A DNA stretch of 64,000 bases from Chrysomallon squamiferum (taxonomy: Eukaryota; Animalia; Mollusca), in contig CM022670.1 of the NCBI GenBank assembly GCA_012295275.1, positions 2,790,001 to 2,854,000 of the forward strand, read 5' to 3'. This document shows positions 1 to 62,657 of the stretch, in pieces (position 1 is the stretch's first letter; each line of letters begins with the position of its first letter). The notes under the pieces are model-generated. The model ran no database searches. It was given only the letters and a program-made list of their open reading frames with translations, and had not been told where the DNA came from. The position numbers were made by a program, and so were the translations under genes.

Positions 1-20
1 TTCTGTTGTTTTTTCTGCAG

Positions 21-276
21 GTTTCCTTGCAGGAGTCGACTCCTCCTGAGCATTCAGTGATACGCCTGAGAGCGACAGACAGAGATGCGGGGAGGAACGC
101 TGAAATCACCTACCACATGGCCCACAGCCCATCCGGCAGCTTCTACATTGACTCGAAAACTGGTGAGTGACACGCTGTGACAAGTAAAATTCAAACTGAT
201 GTAGTATCTGCTTTTTTTTCACCTGACTTATTTGCTATCTCAGTGCTTGTAATTATTGTTTATTGAAGGCATGTAA

Positions 277-325
<49 letters not shown>

Positions 326-3300: not shown

Positions 3301-3865
3301 TGAGGAGGAATTCAGTGGCTCCTACAACTGGGACTACCTGCTGAACTGGGGGCCGCAGTATCAGCCCCTAGCTCACGTTTTCTCTGAAATCGCCAAACTA
3401 AAGGACGATTCCGTTCAGCCAAAAACACAACCAGTGAGAACTGTGCCGCAGCAGAGAACCAACACGTCACTTTATTTTAAAACAAAAACTGTCCCTCCAC
3501 CCATGATAACAAACACTCCACCCAAGGCTGTTGCTCCTCAGGTGATGGGTAGGCCGAACCTCACCTCCACCAGCAGCAGCTCCCACCCCCACTCGGGCTG
3601 GGCGAGTACAATGAACACCTCCATGCCCAGTCTGCCGCGTTCCCCCATCAGCTACGAGTCTAGTTTCACCTCGCCAGCACTAACCCCGTCCTTCGCTCCT
3701 TCCCTGTCTCCTCTAGGAGCAGGTTCTCCTTCTCCTCTTGTTAGTGCTCATGCTAATGGCTCACCTAACAGTTCGGGACAAAATACTCCAGGCAGACGAG
3801 TCTCAAAACAAAATGGACATTTAGCTCTTAGCAGTTCAGGGTCAGAACGGGAATTTAGAATATGA
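21..3865 (+). CDS. ds: Dachsous-family protocadherin, 3' part (exons 21-162, 559-730, 1273-3865; gene begins upstream of the window)
   Basis: The exons have AG/GT boundaries and join in frame (phase 1, then phase 2). They encode cadherin repeats (DRE, DxNDNxPxF, AxDxD motifs) and a TM helix (VVLAVIIVVIIIVLLVAISIFVFCLI). The cytoplasmic motifs SSGRGS and GSYNWDYLLNWGPQYQPLAHVFSEIAKLKD are typical of Dachsous/DCHS. The C-terminus is EFRI. Confidence 0.92.
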
Positions 3866-11901: not shown

Positions 11902-18685
<6,784 letters not shown>

Positions 18686-20020
18686 TGCTACTGTTATAGT
18701 TTCTTTCTACGTCATCATGTCGAAATTTACAAATTGTATGTTAAATAGATGGTGTATAGGTATATATATGTGTGTGTGAACTACTTATAATGTAAATAGC
18801 AGAATAAATATGATATCCCTGTATGTTACAAAGTTAAGGATAACCAGTCATCCATTGCATTTATATACACACATACTGTAACTCTATGCTTCAGATGTTT
18901 TAAATAACCTGTTCCAAAGTTTTTTTAATCAGGCAGTTCTACATTGTCAACTGCTCTAGAAATGATTAGTGTTTTACGTCCAGTATTCTTGTCAATTACA
19001 CCGAGTGTAACGTATACACTTTACTGTCTATTCTGTGTTTCAAAGACATACGAGAAAAAGTCACGCTTCAGTGAATCTTGTTTGATTACACTGAAGAATT
19101 GCTAATAACAGTCTTTTTAACCTTGTATATCAAATCACAACAAAGAAATACCTTGAAATACCTTATGACACCATCTTGGACATGCAGAATAATAATGTAT
19201 GGAGGAAAAAAAAATTGAACTATCAAATTTCTTACCGTTAGCTGAACTCTTGCTAAAGAAACAAAAGATTGTTAAACAAAACAAAAAGAACCTTAACATT
19301 TGACCAAGGCAGGCAACAATACGCACGCCATGTTTTTGATAATGTTAACTACATTCCAAACAGACTATGTACAATTGTTACATATCCTTTTCTCTATGTT
19401 GTTTTCTCTGCACAGGAGATTGCATCTTTCCAACACGCATCGAAGAAAAAAATCAGTCCACCCGACAATTAGATACGATGATAACTTCCAAGGAAGTTAT
19501 ACAGAAAGTATTCCACTGGTTAAAATTAACCTAGTCAATACTGCACTTGAACTGAACACCGTATTCCACCTCTTCGCGAATCAAAATAAATCTCCAACTC
19601 TTTCTTCACCTTATTTCCTAGTGTTCTTTTTTCTTTTGTCTCGAAAGCAAACTGCACGCAGACCACATAACTAATCAGGACTCCAAAACTGGTTGACCAT
19701 TACGTAAATGAAAAAAAAAAAATAAAGGAAAAAAAAAGTCTTGTCGCGAAGCTCGTTAAGGCTTAACCTGTGTACAAAGTCTTATTCTGCCTGGTTTAGG
19801 CGATAAACACTTAACCGGCTTTTTTTGAACAGAGATCCTTTCTTCTGTTACCTCTGGTAATTACTCTGTTTTTACACCCCTCAGCGGATCTGTAAGTTGT
19901 AACTGGCCATTTAAGTGTACTGGTACTTTATGTTACGAACTCGTGTTAATTGCTGTTCTCGTTGTAATATGTTGTAGTACGTGTTGTCTTGTCGGGGGAG
20001 AGAAAAAAAAAGTGTGTTTC

Positions 20021-38753: not shown

Positions 38754-39716
38754 TAATAAAATACATTCCTTCATAAACAAACGTAACAAATACATCTTCG
38801 GATTTTCATTTTAAAAGGACTGCAGTGGAAACAGATGTAGATAATATTGTTTCATTTTATGTGGTTTTATTAAGTACTGGGTTTCACTCGGTGTCTCTCC
38901 TGCAATTAATCAGCTCGTCTTAAAAATACGGAAGCACCAGCAATTTAATTTGTAACTTGTTAAAGTTAAAATGTTAACGTATTATAATTGTATGGAAGCC
39001 AGCAGCGACAAGACAGAATTACTTCGTGTTATAACAGCCATTAATTTATGTCAGTTAGTTGGTTACAACAGCCACAAAAATAAAATAATAATAATTATTA
39101 TTATAAAATAGAAATCTTTTTATCTTCCATTCCTTTTATCTACTGCCGTTATTTATTTATTTGTTTGTTTGTTTATATATTTATTTATTTATTATTTTAA
39201 TTTTTAAAAATTGTTTTACTATTTATTCTTTAAAGTGTTCTAATGGTTGGATGAATTATTTTTGTTATTGTAATCTCGTCTTTGTTAATTAAATAATAAG
39301 AACATATTAATATGAATTAATGAATTAATCGTGCTTTTCTTTTCACTTATAGAGGACATGAAATATGGTAATACACAACAGCAGCAACAACAACAATAAC
39401 AACATCACCAATATTATCATCATTATTATTATTATTATTATTATTATCATCATCATCATCATCATCTTCAAATAAATTATATAACATGCTCTTATGAGTG
39501 ATGAAAGTAAAGTAAAATATGAAAACGTACAAGAACTATACTTTAATTACCTATGTCTTCAGCACTGCTATTATTTTATTAATATTACAAATTAAGATAA
39601 TTATTTCCGAAATAGAGTTTTGCATTCCTTTCATTTATTTATTTATTTATTTATTACGGCGATGGTTACGCAGTGATATAACAACTGTGTTTGCTTTTCA
39701 GTGTAAAAAAACAAGG

Positions 39717-40508
39717 ATGAAACGTGACGTGACCATCGACTACAGCACACAACAGTCACGACAACGACTTTGCAGCAAGAAGCGATCCGAAAACAACGAC
39801 AACGACATTCACTGCAGCGACGACAGCAGTGACTACCACATGTCGTACACGGCTTCGGAGGCCAGCGAGCAGTGCGACCTCTCCGACCACGAAATGCACG
39901 ACGAAGACGACGACGACGACAACGTCTTCTGCTCCGAAATACCTTCCCCCGACGGCATGAAGAATGCGGGCTACATCTGTCTTCAGAGCGTACCGCGCCA
40001 GCTACTTCCAACGCGTCAGCTTTTCCATTCGAGTCCGGCGGTCGTTTCCATGGAATCGCCCCTCGATCTGAGTCACAAGCACATGCGCAGACGGTTCAGC
40101 GAGGTTCAGCTCTCGCAGCCTTTCCGCAAGGTCGCGCGGCGGATGTTTACGAACAGCAGGGAAAGATGGCGGCAGCAGAACGTCAATGGGGCCTTCGCGG
40201 ACCTGCGGAAACTCGTACCAACGTATCCACCAGACAAGAAACTGAGCAAGAACGAAATTCTCAGACTCGCCATACGATACATCAAGCTGCTCGGTGAAGT
40301 CCTCGAGTACCGAAAAGAGCAGGAACTCGGCTCTCAGCAGACGAGTAGCGCGAGCGATCAAAAGACAGACGACAGCGCTGGCTGCGACCTTGAACCCGAA
40401 ACGAGCCGACGTCTGCCGAAACCGTCAGACAGCGCCACTTCGCCGTCTCCACCCTCGGTTAGTGTACCAGCGACAACAGGTTCAGAGAGTTCAACGCACT
40501 TGTCATGA
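39717..40508 (+). CDS. tal1: SCL/TAL1/LYL1-family bHLH transcription factor, ~263 aa, single coding exon
   Basis: The b[55 protein letters not shown] is nearly identical to the TAL1/SCL domain. There is a splice acceptor at 39701 and the first ATG after it is at 39717. The ORF-track start at 39519 is intronic. A PLDLS motif lies upstream of the bHLH. Confidence 0.92.
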
Positions 40509-44288: not shown

Positions 44289-44526
44289 TATTATTAATTA
44301 TTATTTATTATTATTGATTTAATTAAAATATTCTTTGTTAGAAAATATGAATTAGATTAGAATTAATATATTAAAATCTTGAGGCTGTATGAATTTTAGA
44401 AAAAAAAAAAATTAAAAGCTTTTTGTTTTTATAATTTTATTTTCAAAAAGTAATAAAACAAAGAATAGCCGGTATTCGTACAAAGGACCGTACAACAGCC
44501 TTTTCAAACAATGAACATTCGTTATT

Positions 44527-45100
44527 TCAGCCGTGGTGTCCGTGTCCATGCCCTTGACCATGACAGTGTCCATGTCCATGCCCGTGACCATGACCGTGAC
44601 CATGACCGTGTCCATGTCCATGCCAGTGACCATGACCGTGTCCGTGTCCGTGTCCGTGTCCGTGTCCATGTCCATGCCCGTGACCATGACCGTGTCCGTG
44701 TCCGTGCCAGTGACCATGACCGTGACCGTGTCCGTGTCCATGTCCATGTCCATGGCCGTGACCATGACCGTGTCCGTGTCCATGCCCGTGACCATGACCA
44801 TGACCGTGTCCGTGTCCATGTCCGTGTCCATGGTGACAAGACAGTGCTACTGTTATCAAAAATACTGAAATAACAATAGCAGTTTATTTATTTATTTATT
44901 TATTTACTAACTTATTTACTTATTTATTTGTTTTGAATTTCGTCTTACTATTACCACATCTACAGTAAATAATAATAACAACAATGACAATAATGATGAT
45001 GATGACGATGATGATGATAATAATAATAATAATAACAACAACAAAAATAACAATAGCTCATAAATGAAAGAAAGAATAAATGAATAAATAAATGAATGAA

Positions 45101-45131
<31 letters not shown>

Positions 45132-45178
45132 GACATACCTATTAAAACAAGTAGAAAAAGGATGCTGGATAGCTTCAT
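44527..45178 (-). CDS. HG1: secreted (His-Gly)n protein, 125 aa (exons 45178-45139, 44864-44527)
   Basis: MKLSSILFLLVLI|VFLITVALS-CHH(GH)n with two HW and one HC, ending HHG*. Exon 1 is 40 nt, with donor G|GTATGT and acceptor tttcAG. TATA-like box at ~45248-45255. Confidence 0.88.
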
Positions 45179-45247
45179 TGTGTAATTATTGTGAATCACA
45201 AAAATGAAAGAAATCACTTGTTTTGAAATACACAAAATTTCGAACTG

Positions 45248-45377
45248 AATTTATAATAAGAGAAATGCTGACCACAGCTGGACATTGCATGGTAACCATG
45301 ACAAACCTGACCATAGGCAGGGATTACTGTATACTTTTTACAAATGATTTAACAAAAATCTCCGGTGAAGTAATAAT

Positions 45378-45476
<99 letters not shown>

Positions 45477-45779
45477 CATATGCATTTATCATATGCTCCT
45501 ATTTCATTCAAAACAAGATTTTTTTATTATTTATGTACATCGACATTAAAATGAAACTGAAATATGATCAATTCAATTTATTTATTATTCATTCATTCAT
45601 TCATTCAGTAATTCAAGTTACTCTCATCACAGTCAAACATGACCAAATGTAATAAATGTCTTATCATAATTGTGTTGTACATTTTTTCTGCCATCAAAAT
45701 TATTTGTGACGATTACGCAGCAAGGCTCACCTGTGGTCAGTCATGTCCTGCTGTGGTCAGTGAAATGTTTTCTATAAAA
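45248..45779. promoter_or_regulatory. Divergent promoter region of HG1/HG2 with mirrored TATA boxes and CTGTGGTCAG motifs
   Basis: TATAAA on minus (~45250) and TATAAAA on plus (45773-45779). CTGTGGTCAG occurs at 45268-45277(-), 45731-45740(+) and 45751-45760(+). Variant CTATGGTCAG at 45307-45316(-). Confidence 0.65.
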
Positions 45780-45859
45780 GCCGCACTGTGTCTCGATGAA
45801 ATCAAAACCTGAAATTTAACTTCATTTATACAAACAGACAACAGACAGAAAGAACAAAA

Positions 45860-45904
45860 ATGAAGTTTTCCCATGTTTTATGCATAGCGATATTAATTGG
45901 TATG

Positions 45905-45940
<36 letters not shown>

Positions 45941-46565
45941 TTAATTACTTATTTATTTATTTATTTGTCTGTTAATTAATAAGTTTTTAGCTTTATTTTT
46001 AATTATTTTAATTTATTTTATTTTATTTTATTTATTTTTTTTTGCTTTATTTTAAATTTTTTTCATTTTACTTTTACTTTTATGAATTATTTATTATTAT
46101 TATTATTTTTTTTTTTAGTTATTTATTGGAAAGAAAAATGATAAATTATTCAAAAGCACATTATTTTATATATTAATATATTATTATTGGGGTTGATGTT
46201 GTTGTTGCTGCTGTTGTTGTTGTAATTATAATTATTATTATTAAATTTTTTCTTCAGTGTTACTAGTTTCAGTAGTTCTGTCATGTCATCATGGACATGG
46301 ACACGGACACGGCCACGGCCACGGACACGGACACGGACACGGTCACGGACATGGCCACGGACACTGGCATGGACACGGCCACGGTCACGGACATGGACAC
46401 GGCCACGGCCACGGCCACGGCCACGGTCACGGTCACGGTCACGGTCACGGACATGGCCACGGACACTGGCATGGACACGGTCACGGACACGGACATGGAC
46501 ATGGACATGGACACGGACACGGTCACGGTCACGGACACGGACACGGACACGGACATCACGGTTAA
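45860..46565 (+). CDS. HG2: secreted (His-Gly)n protein, 115 aa (exons 45860-45899, 46258-46565)
   Basis: MKFSHVLCIAILI|VLLVSVVLS-CHH(GH)n with two HW, ending HHG*. Exon 1 is 40 nt, with donor G|GTATGT and acceptor tcttcAG. Confidence 0.88.
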
Positions 46566-46871
46566 TCCGATTTTTTTTCGTTACAAAAGGCTGTTGAACG
46601 GCTTTTATATAAATATTTCATATTGTGTAATAAAATCTTTGAAAACTGAATACTTGAATTTTAAATTTTATTATTTAAAACTTCAGTATTTACTTTATAA
46701 ACGCTAACAGTAACCAGTAATTTATATTGCCATGGTTACACATTTAATTGTCACAGAATGTATTTTGAAATAAAAAGTAAATTTTTTAGTACTAGTAGTA
46801 GCAGGAGTAATAGTAGTAGTAATAACAGCATTAATGGTAGTTGCAGTAGCAGTAGCAGTAGTACTAGTAGT

Positions 46872-46904
<33 letters not shown>

Positions 46905-47094
46905 ATAAACAAAACTAATGAAGTTTAAATTAATAAGTGCAAAATATACAGTTTACTTTTTACTTTTATATTTTTAATATTAATTATTTTTTTTAATAAT
47001 TTTTATTAATTTTTGCTTTATAATCTTTATATGTTATTAATACTTATATTATTATTATTATTATAATTATAATTATTATTATTATTATTATTAC

Positions 47095-47125
<31 letters not shown>

Positions 47126-47605
47126 TTGTGTGGTCAAAATTATTAAAATAAATAAATAATAAATAAATAAATAAATAAAGAAAAATAAATAAATAAATAA
47201 ATAAACTAAATAAATAAATAAATAAAATAAAATAAAATAAAATAAAATAAAATAAAATAAGATAAAATAAACAAATAAATAAACAACACACTATTCTAAT
47301 AACGCGTAGACCACTGTTTCATTGCCCTCTCTTGCTCATCGCTAGAACACGCAGATTTTATTGTGTAATGCAATACGTGTATGACTAACAACGTTCATGC
47401 TTTTCTAAATTTTACTTCATTTTTATTTTTTATTCATTGCTCGTAAGAATTTTATGGATCGTTTCTTAATCTCTTTCACTAGATTAACGAAGCAGGTGTT
47501 GCGAAAAAGCGAAAAAAAGACACAAAAAGAAAAGAAAAGAAAAACAACATATTCGGTGTGAAACATGCATATCGATTTAAGTGCATTTTATGTGAAAAAT
47601 ATGCT

Positions 47606-47688
<83 letters not shown>

Positions 47689-48705
47689 GACGTACGCACG
47701 TGTATGTATGTGTGCAATAATATTTATAATTCTTATCTAGCTATTATTAATTGTTAATTTTGACACAAAACGATATTATGAAAATAAACTCTTTTTAGAG
47801 TAAACTGTTTGAATTTTGGCTAATATTAAAATTAACATCAAACAGAAATATAAAGTAATAGGCCTAGTGATAGCGATTGAAATGCACGATATTGAAGGAA
47901 ATCGTTTTAGTGTATTAACGTACAAAAAACCCCAACATAAAACCTTAACAACAGTTAGTAACCTGTTATGTTATTACAGTGTGAGATAAGCTGCAATCTC
48001 AGTTAATCATAAATAAAATTAATTTCTTTATGAAAATATACATATTTATTTAATTGCTTATTTATTGCTTGCATTTATTTATTTATTTATTTATTTAACC
48101 ATTTATTTTTTAATTTATTAATTAACTTTTTTCATTTATCTATTTAATTTTTTTAAATCTATTTAACTGTTTATTTATTTATTATATATGATTTTCAATA
48201 CAATTTATTTGTTTATGCAACTGAGTGTATTATTCCATCTTTAATATTTTTATTATATTTTTTTTTTTTTCTTTCGTTGTTTATTTATTTTCTTTTACTT
48301 ATTCACTTTAGTTATTTATTTAATGATTTATCGATTTCTTTTATTTCTATTTCCTTTTTTCTTTATTCATTCATTTATTAATTTATTTATCCATTCATTC
48401 TCTTCTTCATACATTCATTTATTCATGCATTACATTATTCATTCATTTATTCTTTATTCCTTTATTTACTTATTCATTTATTTTAATTTAATTTGTTTGG
48501 TTTTGTTTATTTTATTTTATTTTATTTTATTTTTTTTTTTTTGCTTAATTTTATTATATTTTATTTTATTTAACTTTTTAAATTTATTTATTTATTTGTG
48601 TATTCACTAAATCGTTGAAGTATTGTTTGTTTTGTATACTACACACGGACCACATTTCGAAAAAAGCTTCTCATTAAAGCTCAAATTAAACTCTAATAGT
48701 ATTTC

Positions 48706-48760
<55 letters not shown>

Positions 48761-48851
48761 TGTAGTAGTTTTTATTTTATGAATTTCACTACCAATCTAT
48801 CCTTTGTTGAAATAAGACCGTTCAACAGTCTTCATTAAAATAAATTATATT

Positions 48852-49035
48852 TTATCCATGATGATATCCGTGATGTCCGTGATGACCACTGTGTCCGTGA
48901 TATCCGTGATGACCGTGGTGTCGATAATGTCCGTGGTGACCGTGATGTCTACGATGACCGTGGTAACCATGACGATGCCCGTGTCCGTGATGATAGGCAT
49001 CGGACAGTGACAAAATAGCCAATGAAACTGTAAAG

Positions 49036-49066
<31 letters not shown>

Positions 49067-49086
49067 TAATAATTACTACTAAACTA

Positions 49087-49160
<74 letters not shown>

Positions 49161-49218
49161 CTAATCACAATAATAATAATAATAAATAAATAAATACAAT
49201 AATAAATAAATAAAATAA

Positions 49219-49258
<40 letters not shown>

Positions 49259-49845
49259 AATAAATAAGTAATTAACAGTAATAATAATAAGAACAGAAGT
49301 TGGTGTAGAAACTACGGTTGTAATAATTATAGAATAGAAGTAGTAGTTCGATAGCAGAAGTATTAGTAATAATAATAGTAACACTAGTAATGATAATAGT
49401 AGTAGTAGTAACAGCAAAACAAATAGCAGTGTTTGTTCCTGCAGTAATAGGAAAACAAATAGTATGTGTGTTGTATTATATATACAGTAGAATGAAGATT
49501 TTTATTTAGATACATATAAATTAGAAAGAAAAACAGAGTTTTTTAAAAAGAATTGAAGTGTATTTGCAGTATATTTGATATATATATATATATATATAAA
49601 TATATTCATATATATATATATAAAAATATATATATATATATATACTGAAATACACCCAGAAATAAATACAGACAAAGCCACAGAGAGAAATATTTACACT
49701 GTAAAAGCAAAATAATCATCTGATGTCTGCCTCTTTCTTACCTTTTGTTCTTTATAACAACATATCAGAAATTATTTTAAAACAAAAATTATTAAAAATA
49801 CTTACGAATCAAGACGATCAAAACGTTAACACTTAAGAACTTCAT
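48852..49845 (-). CDS. HG3: secreted His/Gly/Tyr/Arg-rich peptide, 71 aa (exons 49845-49806, 49027-48852)
   Basis: MKFLSVNVLIVLI|LSLAILSLSDA-YHHGHGHRHGYHGHRRHHGHHGHYRHHGHHGYHGHSGHHGHHGYHHG*. Donor C|GTAAGT, acceptor tttacAG, TATA at ~49943-49950. Confidence 0.87.
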
Positions 49846-50985
49846 TTTTCTTCCTTTTCGATTTAGATATAAATATATATATATATATATTTTTTACAAA
49901 CAGAAAGCTCGCTCTGAATGATTTTCAAAAACTGAAACTTTTTTTATATAGAGAAATATTTTACCTGAAACTGTTACCCACGGTTTTCACCTGTGAAGTT
50001 AAGTATATCACGTAGGTAAGTTCGCTGTGTGAAGTTCGGGGAAAAAAAATGTCATATAACGCGATGATGATTTAAAATTGTAAGAGACACACCTATATTT
50101 TTTTCTTCTCTATATGTTATTATGTGTATATATATATATATGTATATATAAATATAATTTTTTCTTATTATTATTAATTTGTCTTCTTTTAACAAAATAA
50201 TTATATAATAATATATAATTTATATTATTATTTACTAATTTTTTATTTTTTTTTTTTTTTTATTATTATTTTATTTTACTGTTGTCATTATTATTATTTA
50301 TATAAAATTAGGTGTGTTCATGTGAAATGTCGGATCATCGTTGTATTTGCGTTGTTAATTTTTTGTTATTAATTTTTCATTAATGTGGGGAATTAGCCAA
50401 TGAAAAAACCGTGGGTAAAAAAAACAAATCTAAAGCAACAGTTATTCTAAAAAGTTTTTGAAAACTGTCTGTTCTGATAATAAATTATTATTAAGTTAAT
50501 AAATTAGAGAAAGCGAAAATAAAATACCAGTTATATAAAGTGATTTCTCCGAGTGTTTGAATACAGTTATTTGTCTTTTTAGCGGCTTTGGCCATTTATA
50601 AAGCACAGGTTATGTTTGAATTTTATATTATTTTTCTTTTTTTTTTTTGTTTCTTTCTTTTATTTTATTTTATTTATTTTTAAAAGACTTTCTTGGTGGC
50701 AGTGTTGTTTTGTTGCGGGTTGTTTGTTTGTTTTCGTTTCGTTTTGTTTTGTTTTGTTCGTGTTTTGTTAAACGAAATTATATAGAAATTAATATTATAT
50801 CTATAATTATCAACTGCGTCCATATATTTTATTTCACTAAGAACTTAATCATTTGGAAACCTTTTTTTTTTTCTAATATATTTATAAGATAAATAAAAAC
50901 AAAAATAATTTTTATTTATTTTTATTTTTTATTTAAAAAAATAAAGAAAAAGAAAGTTAAAAAAGAAAAAGAAAAATTACATGAT

Positions 50986-51465
50986 AAGACTGTACAACAG
51001 TCTTTTTCAAAAAGTGAACTTTAACTTCAGTTTATACATGTTGGTGTTCATGTTCATGGTGATTGTGATGTCTATGATATCCGTAGACAGAATGATAAGA
51101 ATGAAAACAACTAAAAACAACAACAACAAACATTCAAAATAAAAAGTATATGCTGAAACTGTTCCACCTCGTTTTACTACTACTTCTGCTACTACTACTA
51201 CTACTACTACTACCGCAACCAATACTGTTGCTGATGTTGCTGCTATTACTTCTAAAGCTCCTACTAAAACTACCATTTTTATTTCATTAAATTTTAATTT
51301 TTGTAAACGAATAAAGTGAATTTGTGAACACAAAATATTTTACATGATTTAACTGTTCACATTGTGAATCTGTTGTGAAGATTTGTCTAATCTGCTTTTC
51401 TCACTGCAGGGTTTCCAAAACCACGTTGAAATGATAATGTAAAGTGTTTAATGAAAAATGTACAA
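50986..51465 (-). pseudogene. HG4: decayed His-Gly peptide gene copy
   Basis: Retains the 3' hairpin (50986-51004), the acceptor at 51111 and the upstream promoter blocks. The His-rich remnant (GYHRHHNHHEHEHQHV*) is out of frame with the signal-peptide part. No recognisable exon 1. The TATA position reads TGTAAAA. Confidence 0.7.
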
Positions 51466-51617
51466 TACAGCAAAAAAAATAACTTTAGTGGTATGGCTTT
51501 GAGAATTAGAGTTAAGTTTAGAGCTGGTAGAGTTGTTGTTGTTGTTGTTGTCCTTCTTCTTCTTCATTATTATTATTATTATTATTGTTGTTGTAGCTGT
51601 TGTTGTTGTTGTTGTTG

Positions 51618-51658
<41 letters not shown>

Positions 51659-51759
51659 GTATATATTTCATATGTGGTTTAAAAAATTTAATATCTTATT
51701 AATATTAATCTCCATGATTTAATTGGTCGATACATTTATTTTGTTCTTTTCAGAAATTT

Positions 51760-51814
<55 letters not shown>

Positions 51815-52274
51815 GGTCAAATAGATTTCAGTAATAACAAGAACGAGTATCTATTAATCTAATTATCAAAATGGATTAAAATAATAGCTTTCATTAATTA
51901 CTAAATAGAGAATAGCTTAAAATAGTCAAGATATTTTGGGCGTAAAAGCGTGTATTTAATAATGCAGTTACAGAATTGTCTTTTTGTTTGTTTACACAAT
52001 ATACTATTAATGTTTGGTTTTTAATGTCATATATGCTATAATATATAACAAAATGACGTCCATCAGTTTGCAATCGCTAAATAACATTTAAGAGAGATGG
52101 ATATTTTGAGTTTTATCTCTTAATTAAAAGATGCAGGTGCACGGAAACAAATACAAAAATTATATATTCATTTTTATTTTTGTTTTAAAAATCATAATAA
52201 CAATAATTTATAATGTAAATGTTTATATCAAGACCGTACAACAGTCTTTCAAGAAAACCAGCGTTAGCTTTAAA

Positions 52275-52669
52275 TTAGCCGTGATGGTGTCCGTGATGTC
52301 CGTGGTGACCGTGTCCGTGATGTCCGTGATGTCCATGTCCATGGTGACCGTGGTGTCCGTGGTGACTGTGTCCGTGATGTCCGTGATGTCCATGTCCATG
52401 ATGTCCGTGGTGACCGTGATGTCCGTGGGCCAGAGACAGAGAAGCTAGAATAAGAGTAACTGAAAAAAAATAAATAAATAAAATAATAATAATATAAATA
52501 ATAATAAAATAAATAATAATATAAATAAAAATATAATAATAATAAGAAGAAGAAGAAGAAGAAGAAGAAGAATGAAATACAGTATAATTTTCGATATATT
52601 TAATAATGAATTATTAATAATTAACTTACCAACAAAGATGGTGAAAATGTTTAGGTTGGTAAACTTCAT
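52275..52669 (-). CDS. HG5: secreted (His-His-Gly)n peptide, 74 aa (exons 52669-52630, 52459-52275)
   Basis: MKFTNLNIFTIFV|VTLILASLSLA-HGHHGHHG...HHHG*. Donor G|GTAAGT, TATA at ~52744-52751. Confidence 0.88.
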
Positions 52670-52912
52670 TTTCTTATACTTTTCCTTTCCTTATTTTTTC
52701 TTCTGCAGGGAACAAGTGAATAATTTGTGAATGAGAAAGTTTATTTTATAGTAAATTAATAAACTTCATTAATACAATCACAGTGAGGTTCTGTGGTGAA
52801 AGGTTTGATAATCTTGTTGATTCACTGCAAGGTTTCTTTGTAAAAAATCCCAACTAAATGATGATCTAACGTTTTCTTCTGAGAAAAATGCACATCAGAT
52901 GCTAACAATGCA

Positions 52913-52961
<49 letters not shown>

Positions 52962-52978
52962 TTAATAATAATAAAAAT

Positions 52979-53071
<93 letters not shown>

Positions 53072-53888
53072 AAACAAAATAAAATAAAAATAATTTAACT
53101 TTAATCATTGACATTTCTGTGATATATTTGAGAAATGTTTACAACTTACTTGTAAATTGTATTATTTATAGTATTTTTATTAATTGTTCTGATATTTGTT
53201 GTTATAGTAGCATCATAATCATCGTTATCGTTACAATAATAATATTATTTATTTATTATTATTCTTTTCTATGTTGTTATATATATTTTACAAGGAAAAA
53301 ATTAAATTATACAGTTCAGTCATGCAAATTGATATTAAAAAAAGAAATTATTTAGCTCTTGGACTATTTTCTAGTATTATAAACATATCTAAAAGCTATT
53401 TCAGTCAACCATAGGAATGAACTGAAGATTACTTATTTTATTTTAACTTGTCTTATTAGCAATATTAGTTATACACATAGGGTGTTTTTCCAGATAAAGT
53501 ATTATGTATCTAATACACATATAGCGATCATTTTATTTTATTTTATTTTATTTTATATATATAATTTTTTTATTTTTTTATTTTGTTCTGGGTATCGTTA
53601 ATTATCTGTTCATTTCTACATAATATACTGAAATGTTGAAATACTTTCTCAACATTGGAAAAAAGAATAAACAAGTTAGAAAATAAAACTAACGTAAGTC
53701 TTTGTCACTGATTTTACGATTCAAAATGTCATTTTCTGAGGAAACAAATAATAATTTTCTTTTAATAACATGAAATCTTTTATAAATTCATATCTTTGTT
53801 AAAACAACCTTTTAACTAGATTCACGTTACGAAATCATGGAAATATTTCTATTAAACCAAAAACACATTCGATGATGCAGAAAACTGA

Positions 53889-53936
<48 letters not shown>

Positions 53937-54560
53937 TTCAAACACACACACGCAGGCACATACACCCCCAAAATTCCAACAAAACAGTGTAAGACAAAAA
54001 TATTCTCTATATGCCAGACAAATTATGAAAAGTAAAGAACGAAATAGTATGTAACCTTAATATTAATAAAACAACAATATGTATTAGTATAAATATTGCT
54101 TAGTTACGGCAAAAATGTTTTACCGTTCGAGTTCAAACGATTAACAGATAAAAAAAAAAAAAACATCTAAACACCGTTTTCTGGAAGCATGATAAATAGT
54201 CTGGTATTTGTCTTAAGTGTTAAATATTTTATATGATAAAAAACTACATAATTTGATGTTTTATACTTATATAAAAGATATCTTTACGTTCACTTTATGT
54301 TTTTATGCTCTTTTCTTCTTCTTTTTTTTTTTTATATTTTCTTTTCTTTTCATTATTTTGTGTGTGCGTTATTTTATTTTTTACTTTTTTATTGTTATTA
54401 TTTTGTTGTTGTTGTTTGTTTGTTTGTTTGTTTGTTTTATTGTTTTATTATTGTTGATGATAAAAATATTCTGACAGTTTTTCTATACAACGATGCGCTG
54501 CTTCATTATCTTTTTATTTATTTGAACAAACAATAAAAAATAAATAAAAAAAAAAAAAAA

Positions 54561-54594
<34 letters not shown>

Positions 54595-54899
54595 TATTAC
54601 AGTATAATATTAATGTTCATGTTTTAATATTGTACATCCTAACGCAAAGAAAATTGTCAAGTAAATACGCATTTAAGGCATATGGCTTATTTAAGTATTG
54701 AACATTTAATTTACTGAGTTCTTTGTTTCATCCAGTTAATAAATAATATTTTCGATTTCGTCTCTTAATTAAAGCATACAGAAACAAAACAAAAGTATTT
54801 TTATTGGTTTTTAATTTTTTTTTAAAAACAAATGTTATTACAACTTTTTATGTCAAGACCGTACAACAGTCTTTCAAGAAAACCAGCGTTAGATTTAAA

Positions 54900-55441
54900 T
54901 TAGCCGTGATGGTGTCCGTGATGTCCGTGACCATGGTGACCATGGTGTCCGTGATGTCCGTGACCATGGTGACCGTGATGTCCATGGTGGCCGTGGTGAC
55001 CATGTCCATGATGCCCGTGGTGTCCGTGATGTCCGTGGTGTCCGTGATGTCCGTGATGACCGTGATGTCCGCGGTGACCGTGATAGGCCAGAGACAGAGA
55101 AGCAAAAATAAGAAAGACTGGGAGAAAAAAAAAATAAAGTAAAAATATTATAAAAATAAAGCCTAGTATCGGTTAAGAAATACGAAGTTAAAAATTTTTC
55201 TTTTTTCTTTAGAAAAATTGTAATCAGGTCTTAAAACATAACGAAATACTATTTTTATCAATAATAATAATAATAATAAATCATAATTTATGTTTAGATA
55301 TAATTTATTATAAATCTTAATTAATTTTCTTTTTATGTTTTGATGCCATTAAATACAACTGTTAACTTAATTATTAATAATTAAAAAATTTGTTAACTTA
55401 CCAACGAAGATAGTAAAACAGTTTAGACTGGTAAACTTCAT
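54900..55441 (-). CDS. HG6: secreted (His-His-Gly)n peptide, 85 aa (exons 55441-55402, 55117-54900)
   Basis: MKFTSLNCFTIFV|VFLIFASLSLA-YHGHRGHHG...HHHG*. Canonical splice sites, TATA at ~55521-55527. Confidence 0.88.
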
Positions 55442-56187
55442 GCTTTAAAAATATTTTCCTTTCTTTCTTTAATCTTCTGTTGTAAACAAGTTAGTGATTT
55501 TGTGAATGGAGATAAGTTTATTTTATATTAAAATAATTTACATCATTAATACGTTCACAGTGAGAAGCTTGTCTAATCTGCTTAATTCACTGCAGGATTT
55601 TTCTTGTCAAAAACCGCATTGCAATGATGATCTAATGTTTTTAATGAAACGATGGTAACAAATGTTGACAAAGCAAAATATTAGTTAACTGTCAAATTGT
55701 GATGTTTCAAGAAAACTGCTAATTTCAGGTTAGTTTGTAACTAACTGGCTAAATATTAGCACGAGTATCCTTAATGAAGAAGTTTCTCGAGAAAAAAACA
55801 GTTGATTTTGGTAAACGGTGTCAGTAATTAAAAATTGTTTAAAATAAGTAAAAAATAATAATAATAAAAACAAACAAAAAAAAACAACAAAAAAACAGAA
55901 AGAAAGAAAATAGTTGATTTTCGTAAACAGTGCCATTAATTAAAAATTGTTTATAATAAGTAAAAAAAAAAAAAAAAAAAAAAAACCTGAAGGAAAGAAA
56001 TAAACAAATGTTGACAGTGCAAAATATTAACTAAATGACTGCATTAGAAGACAGCTTCTGTTAATTTCAGTGTAGTTTATAACTGAGAGATTAGCACGAT
56101 TATCTCTAATGAAGCAGTTTCTGAAGATAACAGTTTATTTTAGTAAATAGTCTGAGTAATAAATGATTATTTATGATATGTAAAAAG

Positions 56188-56231
<44 letters not shown>

Positions 56232-56764
56232 ATTTCTCGCCGAAATTACGAAACAATTACTGGTTTGTATTGATATAATTATGTTGACAGAAAATACGTA
56301 TTATTATCGATTTATCGTCAGTTGTGTTGAATCTACATGGAAATTATGATAGATAACATTATATATTCACAAACAATTAATGTACATAATTTACAATATT
56401 TCGTAAGAAAATGCCCAGAACGTGAACCAAAATTAAGGGCGATAACTCTTTTGAAAACTTCAACTGGAAATAGATGAATTGTCGAACACCTGTCTGATAA
56501 ATTTAGTTTTCTGGTTTATATTGACCGGATGAAAAATATTTCTGAAATTCACTTCTGTATAAATTTATTTAAATTATTTCCAACAATTTTGCAGTTACAG
56601 TTTTATTTACATATTTTTATTACTAGTATGTGGCACCTTCGGAATATAGAGTCAAATATTTCGTAAAGTTTTATCACATTAATATTAATTTATATTTATT
56701 AATAGTTCTAAAATATGCAATATATTTCAGTAATTTTGTCGTGGTAGTATCTGTTTTTCATAAT

Positions 56765-56835
56765 GAATTGAACAAAAAGTCCATGGTGATGTCCATAATG
56801 GCCATGACGTGCCATACTTAGCACCGCGAGTTAAA
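56765..56835 (-). pseudogene. Remnant of a type-B His-Gly exon 2
   Basis: Reads ARHGHYGHHHG and lies in flanks homologous to those of HG9. The stop codon and acceptor are lost. Confidence 0.55.
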
Positions 56836-57273
56836 AATCACTACGTGTTTGTTAAATCTAAAATATTTTTACTAATGTATATTATAAGATATTATTAACT
56901 ATCTCCAAAGAATATATTCAGTAATTATTTCCCAACATTTATTATATCAAACGATGTAGTAAAAGGAATGTATTTGTAATGTCGAATACTTTTTTAATAT
57001 TTTGAATGAATAAATTCCTTTAACAACGACAACAACAACAATAATAATAATTGTAGTAGTAGTAGTAGTAGTGGTGGTAGCAACAGTAGTAATAGTTATA
57101 GTAATAATAGTAGGAGCAGTGTCAGTGGTAGTAGCAATGGTAAAAGTTGTAGTAGCGGCAATGATGAAGATATGAAAAATGTCCTCGTACATGACATCAA
57201 ATACATTTTTAACACCGAATCAGTTAAGATAATTACTGAATTCATATAAAAAAATAGTATGAATACGTTTAAG

Positions 57274-57335
<62 letters not shown>

Positions 57336-57733
57336 ATTATAATAAAAATAGAACCTAAAATATTCAACATATTTTGTGCGCAGTAATGTGACTTTAATTA
57401 TGCAATTATAGCTTTGTTTTTATATTGATAAAAAAAAATATATATTAGTGTTTGTAATCAGTGTTTTATATGTTGTAACTTAATGAAGATATGATTTAAA
57501 ATATGTTTTCAGTCAGAATTTACTGAATCCTTTCTTCCATCACATAACTTGATAAAATTTGAAAAGTTTTAGATATTTTCAGTTTAATCTGCAAAAAACA
57601 TAAAAGCATACAGAAACAAAAACAAAAATTGTTCTTCTTATTATTTTTATTTCTTTAAAAAACAAATGTTTTTACAAATTTTTATGTCAAGACCGTACAA
57701 CAGTCTTTAAAAAAACCCAGCGTTAGCTTTAAA

Positions 57734-58149
57734 TTAGCCGTGATGATGTCCATGATGTCCGTGACCATGGTGGCCGTGGTGACCGTGATGTCCATGACGT
57801 CCATGGTGTCCATGATGACCGTGATGTCCGTGATGACCATGATGTCCGTGATGACCGTGATGTCCGTGATGGGCCAAAGACAGAGAGACAAGAATCACTG
57901 TAACTGAAAAACAAAATTAAAGAAAGTATAAGTATTGTACAAGTAAGATTTGTATGAATTAACAAATCAAAACTAATAATCACTATATACTGGTTTTTAA
58001 GTTATCATTAATAATAATAATAATAATGAAGTATAATTTATGTATCGATATAGTTGATAATGAATCTTAATTGATTAGTTATTAATAATTAAAAAGTTTA
58101 CTAACTTACCAACAAGGACGGGGAAAATGTTTAAGCTGGTGAATTTCAT
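57734..58149 (-). CDS. HG7: secreted (His-His-Gly)n peptide, 69 aa (exons 58149-58110, 57903-57734)
   Basis: MKFTSLNIFPVLV|VTVILVSLSLA-HHGHHG...HHHG*. Canonical splice sites, TATA at ~58228-58234. Confidence 0.88.
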
Positions 58150-59194
58150 TTTCTTATATTTTTCTCTTTCTTTTAGTTATTCTTCTGTTGTAAACAAGTG
58201 AATGATTTTGTGAATGGAAAACGATTCTTTTATAGTAAATTAACTTTAGCCTTTTAACTGGTCACAGTGTGAAACTGCAGAGAAGAGAAGAGTAATCCTG
58301 TTTATTCACTGCAGAGTTTCCTTGTCAAAAACCACACTGAAACGATTATCTAACGTTTTTGAATGAAAAGTACACGACAAATGTTGACAGTGCGAAATAG
58401 TAATCAGCTTTCGAGATCTGAAACTTCGAAATGAGTAGTATTTGAAGATAGCTTCTGTTAATTTGTAACTGAAAAATTATCAACACACGTCAAGTGCATG
58501 AGATAACTGGATTAATATTAGCACGATTATCCCTAAAGAAGCAGTTTCTGAAGATAACAGATTATTTTCGTAAATGGTGTGAGTAAGAAATGATTATTTG
58601 TGATATGTAAATATAAAATAGTAGAAAAAAATAAAAATAAAAAAAATAAAAAATAAAATAAAATTCTTTCTCGAAGAAATTATGAAAAAATTAATGGTTT
58701 GCATTGATACAATTACTTGGACACAGTATTCGTATTATTATCCATTTATCGTCATTTGTGTTGAATCTACATGGATATTACGATGTACAGAATTATATAT
58801 TTACATACAACATGTATACATAATTTTCAATATGTATTACACGAGAAAACGTCCCATAAAGTGAATTAAAACAGAAGGGCGATAATTCTGTTGAAACATT
58901 TAACTATGAAAACTGATGAATTGTCGAACGCCTTTATAATAAATTCTGTTTTCTGTTTTATAATATCCTGATAAAAAATATTACTTAAATTCACTATTTA
59001 GATAAATAAAATTACATTTTCCAACAATTTCGGAATCAGAATCGTTTTAACATATTTATTAACAGAATATGTTACTTCCGGAATATAAAGTCCAGTATTT
59101 TCTCACATTAATATTTATTGAAATTTACTGGTATGTGCCATTTCTAAAATAAATGATATTTTCCTGTAATGTGATAAAATAATATTTGTTTTTC

Positions 59195-59305
59195 ATACTG
59201 AACTGAACAGTATCAGTAATGCTGGTGTCCACGATGACCACGTCAACAATGTGAATAACAGCCTTGACGTACTGCTGTTCACGCCATCAGCCTAAAAATA
59301 CTGAA
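59195..59305 (-). pseudogene. Remnant of a type-B His-Gly exon 2
   Basis: Aligns by eye to HG9 exon 2 (ctgatggcgtgaacagcagtacgtca vs ctgacggcgcgaacaacaacagcacgtca). It carries a CGA>TGA stop and degraded His codons. Confidence 0.6.
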
Positions 59306-60215
59306 TTAATAATTTAAAATATTATTAAATACATGTCAGATATGAATATTTTTAAATTATTACTAAAATATTATTAAGTATCTCCATAGAATGAATTCAG
59401 TAATTATTTCACTACATTTAAAAAGATATAATAAAAGAATGTATTTATTTCAGTAGGTCTACAGTTCATGTTTGCAATGTTTAATACTTACAGATCATAA
59501 TCCTTAACAAATGGTTTGAGGATTCTATTTATTAAAATAATAACAGTAATGATGATGATGATGATGATATAATACAGGTCTGTACTAATAGCAGCAGTAA
59601 CAGTAGTAGCAATAGTAGTAGTAGCAGTAGTAGTACTAATGATGATGATGGTGTGAAAAATGTCCACATCCACTTCGTTACACGAGGAAGAGGCCGGTAC
59701 AAAAAAAAAAAAAAAAAAAAAAATGTCAATCCTTTTCTATTTTCATAACGCCAAATAAATTTTCAATTATAATATGTTATCAATTAAGATAACTATTACA
59801 TTGTATATAATAATAGTACGAATATGTTTCAAAGAAATATTAAAAAAATATTCAACATATTTTGTGACTTCAAGTTTGCAGTTATGGAACTGTTTTTATT
59901 TTGATAAAAAAAATAAATAAATAAATAAATAATAATATTAGTATCTGTAAATCAGTGTTTTAACACAAAAAACATATGATTTAGTCCTTTGTTTGATTCC
60001 ATAAAGTGATAGATATTTTCAATTTAATCTGTAAAAACACACACGTATACAGAAACAAAAACAAAAATTTTTTTTTTTATTATTTTTTTTTTTCGTCTCT
60101 TAATTAAAGCATTTTTTTATTGGTTTTTAAATTTTTTTTAAAAACAAATGTTATTACAAATTTTTATATCAAGACCGTACAACAGTCTTTCTAGAAAACG
60201 CGCGTTAGCTTTAAA

Positions 60216-60514
60216 TTAGCCGTGATGGTGTCCGTGATGTCCGTGGTGACCGTGATGTCCGTGATGTCCATGGTGGCCGTGGTGACCGTGATGTCCGTGA
60301 TGACCGTGATGTCCGTGATGACCGTGATGGGCCAGAGACAGAGAAGCAAAAATAAGAATAACTGAAAAAAAAAAAAAAAAAATTAAATAAAGTAAAAATA
60401 TTATAGAAGTAAAGATATTTGTATGAATTAAGAAATCAAAAATTATAATCACTTTATTCTGGTTTCAAGTTGTATATGACATTAAAACATAAGGAAATGT
60501 TTTTATTTATCAAT

Positions 60515-60545
<31 letters not shown>

Positions 60546-60665
60546 AAGTATAATTTATGTATCGATATAGTTAATAATAATCTTAATTAATTAGTTATTA
60601 ATATTTAAAAACAGAACTAACTTACCAACGAAGATGGTGAAAGTATTTAGGCTGATAAACTTCAT
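60216..60665 (-). CDS. HG8: secreted (His-His-Gly)n peptide, 61 aa (exons 60665-60626, 60361-60216)
   Basis: MKFISLNTFTIFV|VILIFASLSLA-(HHG)n-HHHG*. Canonical splice sites, TATA at ~60742-60748. Confidence 0.88.
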
Positions 60666-61864
60666 TTTCCTATATTATTCCTTTCCTTCTTTATTCTTCT
60701 GTTGTAAACAAGTGGATGATTTTGTGAATGGAAAACGATTCTTTTATAGTAAATTAATTGTTATGATTTCACTGTTCACAGTGTGAAACTGCAGTAGAGA
60801 GTTGTCTACTCTGGTTTATTCTCTGCAGGCTTTCCGTGTAAAAACCACACTGAAACGATGATCTAAAGTTTTTAATGAAAAGTGCATAACAAATGTTGAC
60901 AATGCAAAATATGGATTAACTTTTGAGTGCTCTGGTTTCTAAATGAGCAGTATTTGAAGACAACTTCTGCATTTTAGTTTTGTTATTTTGTATCTGTAAT
61001 ACATTCTTCTCTGTACAGTAATCCTGCAGTTTATGAGAATAACATCATTGTTATTCCAGTTTAATTTGTAACTGAAACATTATATGAGATAATGGGATTA
61101 TTATTAGCACGATTATTTCCAATGAAGCAGTTTCTAAAGAAAACAATGTATTCACTGAACAGTGTAAGTAATAAATTATTATTTGTGATATATAAAGCCA
61201 AAAAAAGAAAAATTAATAATCATAAAAAAAATAGAAATAAATAATAATAATAAGATACTTACTCGTAGAAAAAAGGAAAACATTATTTTATTTTTATAAC
61301 AAAATACAACTTTTCCTTTAGTCTTTTTTATTCAATATATTTACATATATTATATGTGTTACTTATTTATTATTATGCATTATATCTACATTGATATTAT
61401 GGAGATGTAGCATTAAATATATGTAATATATTCTGTTTACGTTCAATAAATTAGTATACTTTTCAACACGCTTTTAATATGAAAAACCATCCACGGTGTA
61501 AACAAAATCTGTTTCTGATAACTCTTCTTAAGAGTTTATGAAAACTGATGAATTGTCGAATAAGTTAATTATTTATCGTAATTAAGAGAAATTCAGTTTT
61601 CAGATTCATTTTATCCAAATGAAGAGTGTTTCCGAAATTCTTCATTTACACAAATAAAATAACATTTTCCAACAATTTCGGAATAACAGTTTTTCACACA
61701 TTATATTACCGGTATATGGTACTTCCGTATGTACAGTTTTCTAAAGTTTTATCACATTAATATTCAATAAGATTTAACTGTATATTATATTTGTAAAATA
61801 CGCGATATAGTCCAGTAATTTTGTCACATTAATATTTTGTTCTTGCACAACGAACTGAACAAAA

Positions 61865-62512
61865 TTAGCCGTGGTGGTGTCCATGATGTCCATGTCCATG
61901 TCCATGTCCATGATGACCATGACGTGCTGTTGTTGTTCGCGCCGTCAGCATAAAGATAACTGAAATTTTTATTTAGTAATATTAAACATGTATTTATATA
62001 TCTATACATAAAGATCATTGAAAAAAGTATTTAGAAATATTAACTATTCATTTATATATTTAATAATTTGGGTATTGAAATATTATAAAGTATCACGACA
62101 GAATATATTCATTTATTCCATTTAACAATTTTTAAACTTATACAATAAGAATAATATATTTATTTCAGTCAGGTTCTATTTTGTAAAGCACAGACCATGT
62201 TAATGCAAGGTTTACATAAATTCCAATCAATCGATGAAAAAAAAAAAAAAAAGATTAAAAGAAAATTAAAAATTCAAAAGGATTCATTTTATACGACTTT
62301 TGTTTCTACACAAATATCCGCTAAACCAGCATAAAGCCTAATAGAATCTGGTTTTGTTTATTTATTTATTTTATATTTTTTTCCTTCTATTTTACACTAT
62401 TACTACTAGTACTACACTACTACTACTACTGCTACTACTGCTACTACTGCGAGTGCAACAGCTATTACTACTATTTCTACTACTAACAACTACTACTAAT
62501 AGTAATTATAGC

Positions 62513-62577
<65 letters not shown>

Positions 62578-62657
62578 CAATAATAATAATAATATTTTTT
62601 GATAAAATATAACTACATACCTGCTACTATCACGAAAAACAAACTGTTCATCTTCAT
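61865..62657 (-). CDS. HG9: type-B short secreted His-Gly peptide, 43 aa (exons 62657-62621, 61959-61865)
   Basis: MKMNSLFFVIVA|VIFMLTARTTTA-RHGHHGHGHGHGHHGHHHG*. Exon 1 is 37 nt, with donor AG|GTATGT and acceptor tttcAG, in frame. Confidence 0.75.

Follow-up and report, generated by a model that had tools for sequence, protein, structure and literature searches.

The locus considered here raises the question of whether a run of repeats built from histidine (His) and glycine (Gly) codons can be a family of genes and, if so, what its products would do. It lies at 44.5-62.7 kb of a 64,000-nucleotide (nt) stretch of the Chrysomallon squamiferum contig CM022670.1 (the window), where we found eight open two-exon genes, labeled a to h, and three broken copies, the remnants r1 to r3. 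This cluster consists of real protein-coding genes under selection on the protein, with gene h as the doubtful exception.

The genes were located by a six-frame scan for His/Gly-rich stretches and by an independent scan for ATG exons that encode a hydrophobic stretch and end in a GT donor. The latter gave 13 candidates on both strands of the 64 kb, of which 8 are exon 1 of genes a to h, and all 8 frames that end in His-His-Gly-stop have their exon 1 on the same strand, 170-778 nt upstream. In 8/8 genes the intron is GT-AG, in phase 1 and inside the predicted signal peptide, and exon 1 measures 40 nt in a to g and 37 nt in h. A preliminary description of this DNA had proposed this exon arrangement, along with a count of eight intact and three decayed micro-genes; we recover both, with the broken copies at about 51.0, 56.8 and 59.2 kb. 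The open spliced precursors of a to h are 125, 115, 71, 74, 85, 69, 61 and 43 amino acids (aa) long, and alternative in-frame acceptors are present in several genes. Gene b is on the plus strand and all other members of the cluster are on the minus strand, as listed here in window positions.

45139..45178, minus strand, gene a exon 1 (40 nt), first half of the signal peptide
44527..44864, minus strand, gene a exon 2, remainder of the signal peptide and a 103-aa (HG)n peptide with 2 Cys, 2 Trp and 1 Gln
44849 and 44846, minus strand, alternative acceptors of gene a
45860..45899, plus strand, gene b exon 1 (40 nt)
46258..46565, plus strand, gene b exon 2, a 93-aa (HG)n peptide with 1 Cys and 2 Trp
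46267-46276, plus strand, alternative acceptors of gene b
49806..49845, minus strand, gene c exon 1 (40 nt)
48852..49027, minus strand, gene c exon 2, a 47-aa HHG-type peptide with 5 Tyr, 4 Arg and 1 Ser, the most cationic member
52630..52669, minus strand, gene d exon 1 (40 nt)
52275..52459, minus strand, gene d exon 2, a 50-aa (HHG)n peptide
55402..55441, minus strand, gene e exon 1 (40 nt)
54900..55117, minus strand, gene e exon 2, a 61-aa (HHG)n peptide
58110..58149, minus strand, gene f exon 1 (40 nt)
57734..57903, minus strand, gene f exon 2, a 45-aa (HHG)n peptide
60626..60665, minus strand, gene g exon 1 (40 nt)
60216..60361, minus strand, gene g exon 2, a 37-aa peptide that is 100% His and Gly
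62621..62657, minus strand, gene h exon 1 (37 nt)
61865..61959, minus strand, gene h exon 2, a 19-aa peptide, doubtful gene
51032..51110, minus strand, remnant r1, exon-2 relic out of frame with its own acceptor; exon 1 not found in the scan
56778..56830 (approximate), minus strand, remnant r2, short h-type exon-2 relic with its stop lost; exon 1 not found in the scan
59221..59300 (approximate), minus strand, remnant r3, h-type exon-2 relic with stops

Because the window is rich in microsatellites, we tested for coding constraint in three ways. Where a codon differs from the His or Gly codon most used in its gene, the difference falls at position 3 in 187 of 204 cases, and His codons are written as CAY 257 times against a single CAR (Gln); both of these counts are inflated by repeat expansion. 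When each type is counted once per gene, 26 of the 32 possible silent types are seen against 13 of the 112 replacement types (Fisher p about 1e-13). CpG decay at the His-Gly junctions gives 57 silent and 2 replacement changes, though equal numbers would be expected. The earlier observation that third positions vary while His and Gly are kept is therefore upheld by the counts. It had also been claimed that indels preserve the frame, and this can be looked at in a DNA run, X1, whose contigs may be placed on paralogues; its longest pieces show a difference of about 1-5% from the window. Among the indels listed for X1 (12 of 21), both of the coding ones keep the frame (a 9-nt deletion in e and a 3-nt deletion in g), compared to 1 of 10 non-coding ones with a length that is a multiple of three. 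In X1, part of remnant r3 has been replaced.

In a self-comparison the units are 66-80% identical, with the identity reaching into the flanks; the cluster grew by tandem duplication, and copies have been gained and lost. The last three units each hold one long gene and one short h-type copy, and two of these short copies have decayed. Remnant r1 has kept 8/8 of its His codons over 51032-51076 and has had 6/6 of the intervening Gly replaced (by Arg, Asn, Glu, Glu, Gln and Val), so r1 may have diverged under selection on His before it was broken. Genes a and b stand head-to-head and diverge from one interval (45178-45860), with start codons about 680 nt apart and an (AAC)/(AAT) microsatellite between them.

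The signals expected around a gene are present for seven members. TATA matches lie at -77 to -105 in 7 of 8 genes (a to g), and these same genes have a poly(A) signal 63-96 nt past the stop. Gene h has no TATA match within the last 200 nt upstream, no 3' hairpin of the kind described below and no AATAAA or ATTAAA within 350 nt, which makes it doubtful as a functional gene. The preliminary description of all eight as intact thus stands for a to g and, in the case of h, for the reading frame only. A short element, CACTGTGA or CTGTGGTCA, is common to a, b, d, e, f and g at about -99 to -129 from the ATG, placed about 20-40 nt upstream of the TATA box. Upstream of a, b, d, f and g there is a TGTGGT that we take to be Runx-like, and the 5' leaders of e, f and g contain a TGTTTAC that is presumably forkhead-like. 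In RNA run X2 a single 159-nt piece overlies exon 1 of f, and a single 84-nt piece falls in the repeat of g; the former is possibly DNA, because it reaches about 50 nt past the TATA box. Between g and h, 60960-61260 shows very high X1 contig depth and many short RNA pieces, and is probably a dispersed repeat or a low-complexity sink.

The peptides themselves are unusually uniform in composition. Signal peptides of 22-24 aa are predicted from hydrophobicity and the residues at -3/-1, with cleavage sites that are estimates; the best 11-residue Kyte-Doolittle mean is 3.1-3.8 and the -3/-1 residues are small in 8/8, with h the weakest. The mature parts that follow are 19-103 residues long (2-10 kDa) and hold 11-51 His each. 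His or Gly accounts for 432 of the 455 mature residues over the eight genes, with a His share of 50-68% and a Gly share of 28-46%, and none of the eight has Asp, Glu, Lys or Pro. The mature region had been described as almost pure (HG)n or (HHG)n, which is accurate for seven genes (95-100% His and Gly) and not for gene c, at 79%, which has gained Tyr and 4 Arg besides its Ser. Genes a and b alternate His and Gly and have Cys at the start, and c to h are made of His-His-Gly triplets. GG never occurs, internal runs of His are limited to two, and triple His is found only at the C-terminus of d to h. Since the peptides of a and b both start with Cys, and both carry two Trp, disulfide-linked dimers are possible. 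In gene c and in r1 Gly has been replaced more freely than His, which suggests that His is the working residue. The computed charge is +11 to +46 at pH 5 and -0.5 to +3.4 at pH 8, where c remains at about +3.

A second regularity is found at the end of the peptide. All eight genes terminate in His-His-Gly-stop, as had been noted before, and this includes a and b, whose HG repeat would not generate it. The C-terminal Gly of a secretory-pathway precursor is the usual substrate of amidation by PAM, so His-His-NH2 ends are predicted for the whole family, and the fixed terminal Gly is likely to be an amidation signal.

The third regularity is in the message. A 19-nt hairpin element is found in a to g and in r1, 19-27 nt past the stop and upstream of the first poly(A) signal, at the following places.

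44484..44502, minus strand, gene a hairpin, UGU loop, one A-C pair breaking the stem
46587..46605, plus strand, gene b hairpin, UGA loop, the sole compensatory change (A-U to G-C)
48814..48832, minus strand, gene c hairpin, UGA loop
50986..51004, minus strand, remnant r1 hairpin, intact, UGU loop
52230..52248, minus strand, gene d hairpin, like a constitutive decay element (CDE)
54855..54873, minus strand, gene e hairpin, CDE-like
57689..57707, minus strand, gene f hairpin, CDE-like
60171..60189, minus strand, gene g hairpin, CDE-like

A motif search of the window gave these eight family places only, compared to an expectation of 0.09 (there were 10 matches, two of them the opposite strand of the same hairpins). 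The element is the sole conserved part of the 3' untranslated region (UTR): 13 of its 19 alignment columns are invariant, while the flanking UTR has 1 invariant column in 40, a comparison whose p-value is optimistic because the alignment is anchored on the hairpin. The element folds as a triloop on an 8-bp stem in 7 of 8 copies and on 6 bp in a, and 63 of the 64 stem cells pair; the changes in the stem across copies are to G-U, to U-A and, once, from A-U to G-C. The loop is UGU in 6/8 copies and UGA in b and c, with a U-A closing pair and a middle G in 8/8. An RNA element is favored over a DNA palindrome since the G-U pairs work on the mRNA strand only, and we have high confidence that this is a conserved RNA hairpin.

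Whether the hairpin is a site for Roquin or Regnase is a closer question. A Roquin CDE, according to PMC11609897, has a YRU triloop on a stem of 6-8 bp, and loops with G in the middle favor a Y-R closing pair. The family hairpin resembles this in being a triloop hairpin of the 3' UTR with a stem of that length and a Y-R closing pair with the middle G in every copy, and in the YRU loop of six copies. Markov resampling yields strict CDE-like hairpins at about 0.007 per kb, and the window has 7, of which 5 are family copies. Several points weigh on the other side. The UGA loop of b and c violates the YRU rule; with one compensatory pair, the covariation falls short of significance (115 of 500 shuffles do at least as well); the folding z-scores of single copies are -0.7 to -2.0, and gene a favors a different fold. 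Additionally, the estimate of chance counts once and is post hoc, because the eight hairpins share one ancestor, and the literature retrieved for Roquin or Regnase with mollusc terms named neither protein. On balance, the case for a candidate Roquin/Regnase site appears evenly poised. Among other known elements, the hexaloop of the alternative decay element (ADE) could be compared, since GUUGUA, the loop of C. elegans ets-4 in PMC11609897, is present in 6/8 copies, but the closing bases are unpaired in that register. The hairpin does not fit the consensus of the iron-responsive element, the histone stem-loop or the Pumilio site, and Rfam has no family for it, giving a single sub-threshold mir-297 match over a microsatellite. 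A scan of metagenomes for a stop followed by the hairpin gave 5 loci, which we take as chance because 0/5 have a His/Gly repeat upstream. The CDE-like hairpin and the invariant terminal Gly as a likely amidation signal are what this analysis adds to the preliminary description in choosing among functions.

Searches for relatives gave little. With exon 2 of gene d, none of 7741 candidates reached E<=0.001, and with a profile of the eight exon-2 products 7 of 7990 candidates came in at E<=10, none with the layout of the cluster or an animal-type name; both searches covered short proteins only. The family profile had 0 matches against 1.84 billion representatives, and the ESM Atlas gave no usable match for gene d or b. 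These negatives do not show absence, because composition correction makes such searches nearly blind to sequences of this kind. The Pfam Collagen model matches 4 of 8 members (best E 2.8e-06) through Gly periodicity only, and can be set aside given the mature parts free of Pro; the Gly-X-Y register is interrupted by HG inserts in d, e and f. A TrAA12 match is compositional. In the literature searched, to which subscription journals and supplements (these may carry unannotated models) are external, no gastropod cluster of His/Gly-only peptides is described. The main text of one vent-snail genome paper (PMC7142155), as available, does not contain the word histidine, and the available part of another (PMC7895826) uses it twice, both times on amino-acid biosynthesis. 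The family is apparently lineage-restricted and undescribed, in keeping with the earlier suggestion of lineage specificity to the extent that no homologue appears at E<=0.001 in searches so insensitive to this composition.

Looking at known His/Gly systems can help to guide the assignment of a function. The closest in its repeats is MTP of the annelid Glycera dibranchiata, a 30 kDa protein with a signal peptide, 49% Gly and 40% His, which binds many Cu ions and phase-separates (PMC9999432); its repeats are GGH/GHG and HHG/GHH, with no run above two (PMC9999432 section 3.4.1.1). The cluster shares with it the signal peptide, the dominance of Gly and His (89% in MTP), the HHG/GHH and GHG repeats and the lack of long runs. 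However, MTP has Asp/Glu/Lys spacers and more Gly than His, whereas the cluster peptides are 2-10 kDa, 50-68% His and almost without charged spacers, and the gastropod cluster is a multigene one with a fixed terminal Gly, a 3' hairpin and no detectable homology in composition-blinded searches. The shepherins I and II of the plant Capsella bursa-pastoris are short, near-pure Gly/His peptides with triplet repeats. Shepherin I has 27 of 28 residues that are Gly or His (19 Gly, 8 His, 1 Tyr; PMC10698721), binds Zn and Cu and is antifungal in the form of Zn-induced fibrils, and Zn potentiates its amidated analogues (PMC10698721, PMC10004757). Its repeats are GGH (29% His) with Gly above 60%, compared to HHG or HG, 28-46% Gly and never GG in the cluster, and the likeness is one of convergent composition only.

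Other systems are more distant. Nereis Nvjp-1 and the squid beak HBPs are secreted His/Gly-rich proteins that assemble by pH and Zn, and Nvjp-1 is beta-rich at seawater pH and forms Zn fibrils (PMC9999432). These are rich in Asp, Glu, Tyr, Ala and Phe, the GHGXY pentapeptides of the HBPs are absent from the cluster, and worm jaw proteins are 30-40 kDa in size (Nvjp 32-40 kDa; PMC9999432). The pHpG peptides of vipers are short His/Gly peptides believed to act by chelation as inhibitors of metalloproteinases (PMC9472272, PMC12108757); these come from snake venom and have a His block followed by a Gly block, in contrast to the alternating repeats seen here. By size and spacers the cluster falls outside MTP, and by repeat type outside the shepherins, and what it appears to have in common with them is multi-His chelation on a Gly chain. 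The preliminary statement that the family is far simpler in composition than known examples is thus overstated, given MTP and shepherin I. What is unusual in the cluster is the His share, the small size, the clustering and the hairpin.

These comparisons allow a mechanism to be proposed. A short message would be transcribed from a TATA promoter and spliced once, and the peptide would be secreted, with the signal peptide cut after about residue 22-24 and the terminal Gly turned by PAM into an amide to leave His-His-NH2. The amidated peptide would be kept protonated in acidic vesicles until its release. At near-neutral pH the 11-51 imidazoles on a flexible Gly chain would lose their charge and chelate Zn, Cu or Ni, so that a peptide with a strong positive charge at pH 5-6 would be left almost neutral at the pH of seawater, and metal loading may cross-link the chains into fibrils or droplets, by analogy with shepherin I and Glycera MTP. 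Roquin or Regnase binding to the hairpin would shorten the life of the mRNA, and peptide output would then come in pulses that follow a stimulus. These biochemical steps are modeled on the analogues; the gene structure, the constraint, the terminal Gly and the hairpin to which we attach them are observed. The core that is common to the readings, a secreted multi-His metal-binding peptide, we consider very probable. Beyond that, our leading choice, a tentative one, is that these are pulse-expressed, amidated, soluble Zn/Cu-binding peptides for defence or metal scavenging at the surface, in the gut or in the blood cells of the snail. A soluble effector is the best fit to the small peptides, the amidation signal, the element of decay type and the gain and loss of tandem copies, taken together. 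Of the earlier suggestion of a metal-chelating, sclerotising or immune family, the analysis supports a family that is coding, selected and predicted to be secreted, with metal binding as the likeliest common chemistry.

There are a number of observations that count against such pulse-expressed effectors. Within 800 nt upstream of the genes, crude regular expressions found a metal-response element (TGCRCNC) in 0/8 and a kB-like site in 0/8, so classical metal induction and NF-kB induction are unsupported and both are weakened. Membrane-active antimicrobials typically have Lys/Arg and hydrophobic residues, which these peptides lack. The contigs of three RNA runs, whose coverage at 53950-62390 does not extend to a to d or r1, have no joint at the predicted introns, an uninformative result. 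The repeat grammar, moreover, is closely that of MTP, a structural protein, and for this reason an alternative in which the products are matrix peptides ranks close behind, though we still regard it as somewhat unlikely. Like MTP or Nvjp-1, the peptides would be stored in acidic granules, condense at seawater pH or on Cu/Zn, and harden a tissue such as jaw, radula, operculum, shell coat or scale. The single Gly and at most double internal His of the repeats, the Zn fibrils and beta-rich state of Nvjp-1, and the collapse of charge between pH 5 and 8 all fit this, the Cys and Trp of a and b and the Tyr of c could cross-link, and free variation in length is typical of structural repeats. It is weakened by peptides that are 3-15 times smaller than MTP and without its charged spacers, by d to g being almost without cross-linkable residues, and by the fixed terminal Gly and the decay-type hairpin, which would be unexpected in a bulk material protein.

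The remaining alternatives account for less of the evidence. Polycationic antimicrobials that act independently of metal, becoming cationic in phagolysosomes or acidic mucus and binding microbial surfaces, would make use of the high charge at pH 5 and of the 4 Arg gained by gene c, and the His-rich tunicate peptide clavanin A is active at pH 5.5 and 7.4 (PMC10004757). Such a mode of action is improbable here, as the peptides have no hydrophobic face and a charge near zero at pH 7.4-8, and shepherin I required Zn for strong antifungal action (PMC10698721). We give an equally small chance to neuropeptide- or hormone-like signals or a secreted store of histidine. A signal peptide with a terminal Gly is the usual layout of amidated peptides, and two studied gastropod hosts cannot make histidine (PMC7895826); set against this, there are no dibasic cleavage sites bar one Arg-Arg in c, the freely varying length and register are ill-suited to a receptor ligand, and a store would have no need of a fixed end and a hairpin. 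Least probable is that these are not genes at all, that is, GC-rich minisatellites beside chance hydrophobic frames or a wholly dead family. A window full of microsatellites, the absence of a homologue, three broken copies and the doubtful h speak for it, yet the codon-position, CpG-asymmetry and once-per-gene tests, the splice phase matched in 8/8, the TATA box in 7/8 and the coding indels in frame in 2/2, against 1/10 non-coding multiples of three among the X1 indels listed, would be hard to explain in this way.

The neighborhood of the cluster contains several other genes. About 4 kb from it, at 39516-40508 on the plus strand, is an open frame with a bHLH domain, which we take to resemble TAL1/SCL/Lyl. 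TAL1 is a blood-cell factor, and regulation common to this gene and the cluster is possible. Long exons at 11902-13455 and 18158-18706, both on the minus strand, have open frames of 517 and 182 aa and belong to a minus-strand gene or genes, and 8835-9164 and 10200-10610 on the plus strand are exons for a small protein that crosses the membrane several times, looks tetraspan/CD20-like by eye and has a poly-Gln tail. A dachsous cadherin gene has its 3' exons at 1-3865 on the plus strand, and over the searched region it is closest to Haliotis (67%) and then Lottia (60%). In a dachsous tree of the window protein and 20 of the 120 listed matches, with no neomphalid or trochid included, it joins Haliotis with 100/99 support on a long branch, which places the host as a gastropod near the vetigastropods and not Haliotis itself. 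RNA runs from this organism carry a metatranscriptomic label, which faintly suggests that it is investigated together with its microbes.

A family of this kind would be masked as simple repeat in standard annotation and would be invisible to HMMER-type search, and the 19-nt hairpin offers a way to track down relatives in the genomes of other snails when searching with the protein does not work. The genes also provide natural His/Gly peptides of graded length, in both HG and HHG registers and short enough for synthesis, which let the spacing of His be tested against metal capacity, fibril formation and pH switching. Should the hairpin prove to act as a CDE, Roquin-type decay, which is mostly known from vertebrate immunity and from C. 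elegans, would reach an effector family of a mollusc; the literature searched reports no CDE-regulated effector family in a mollusc. In its most specific form, the proposal is that Roquin-controlled, amidated two-letter peptides act as an inducible metal sponge or a metal-triggered fibril net. This is a long shot, and, if it is true, such a sponge or net would ration Zn and Cu to the bacteria of a microbe-associated gastropod or clear toxic metal.

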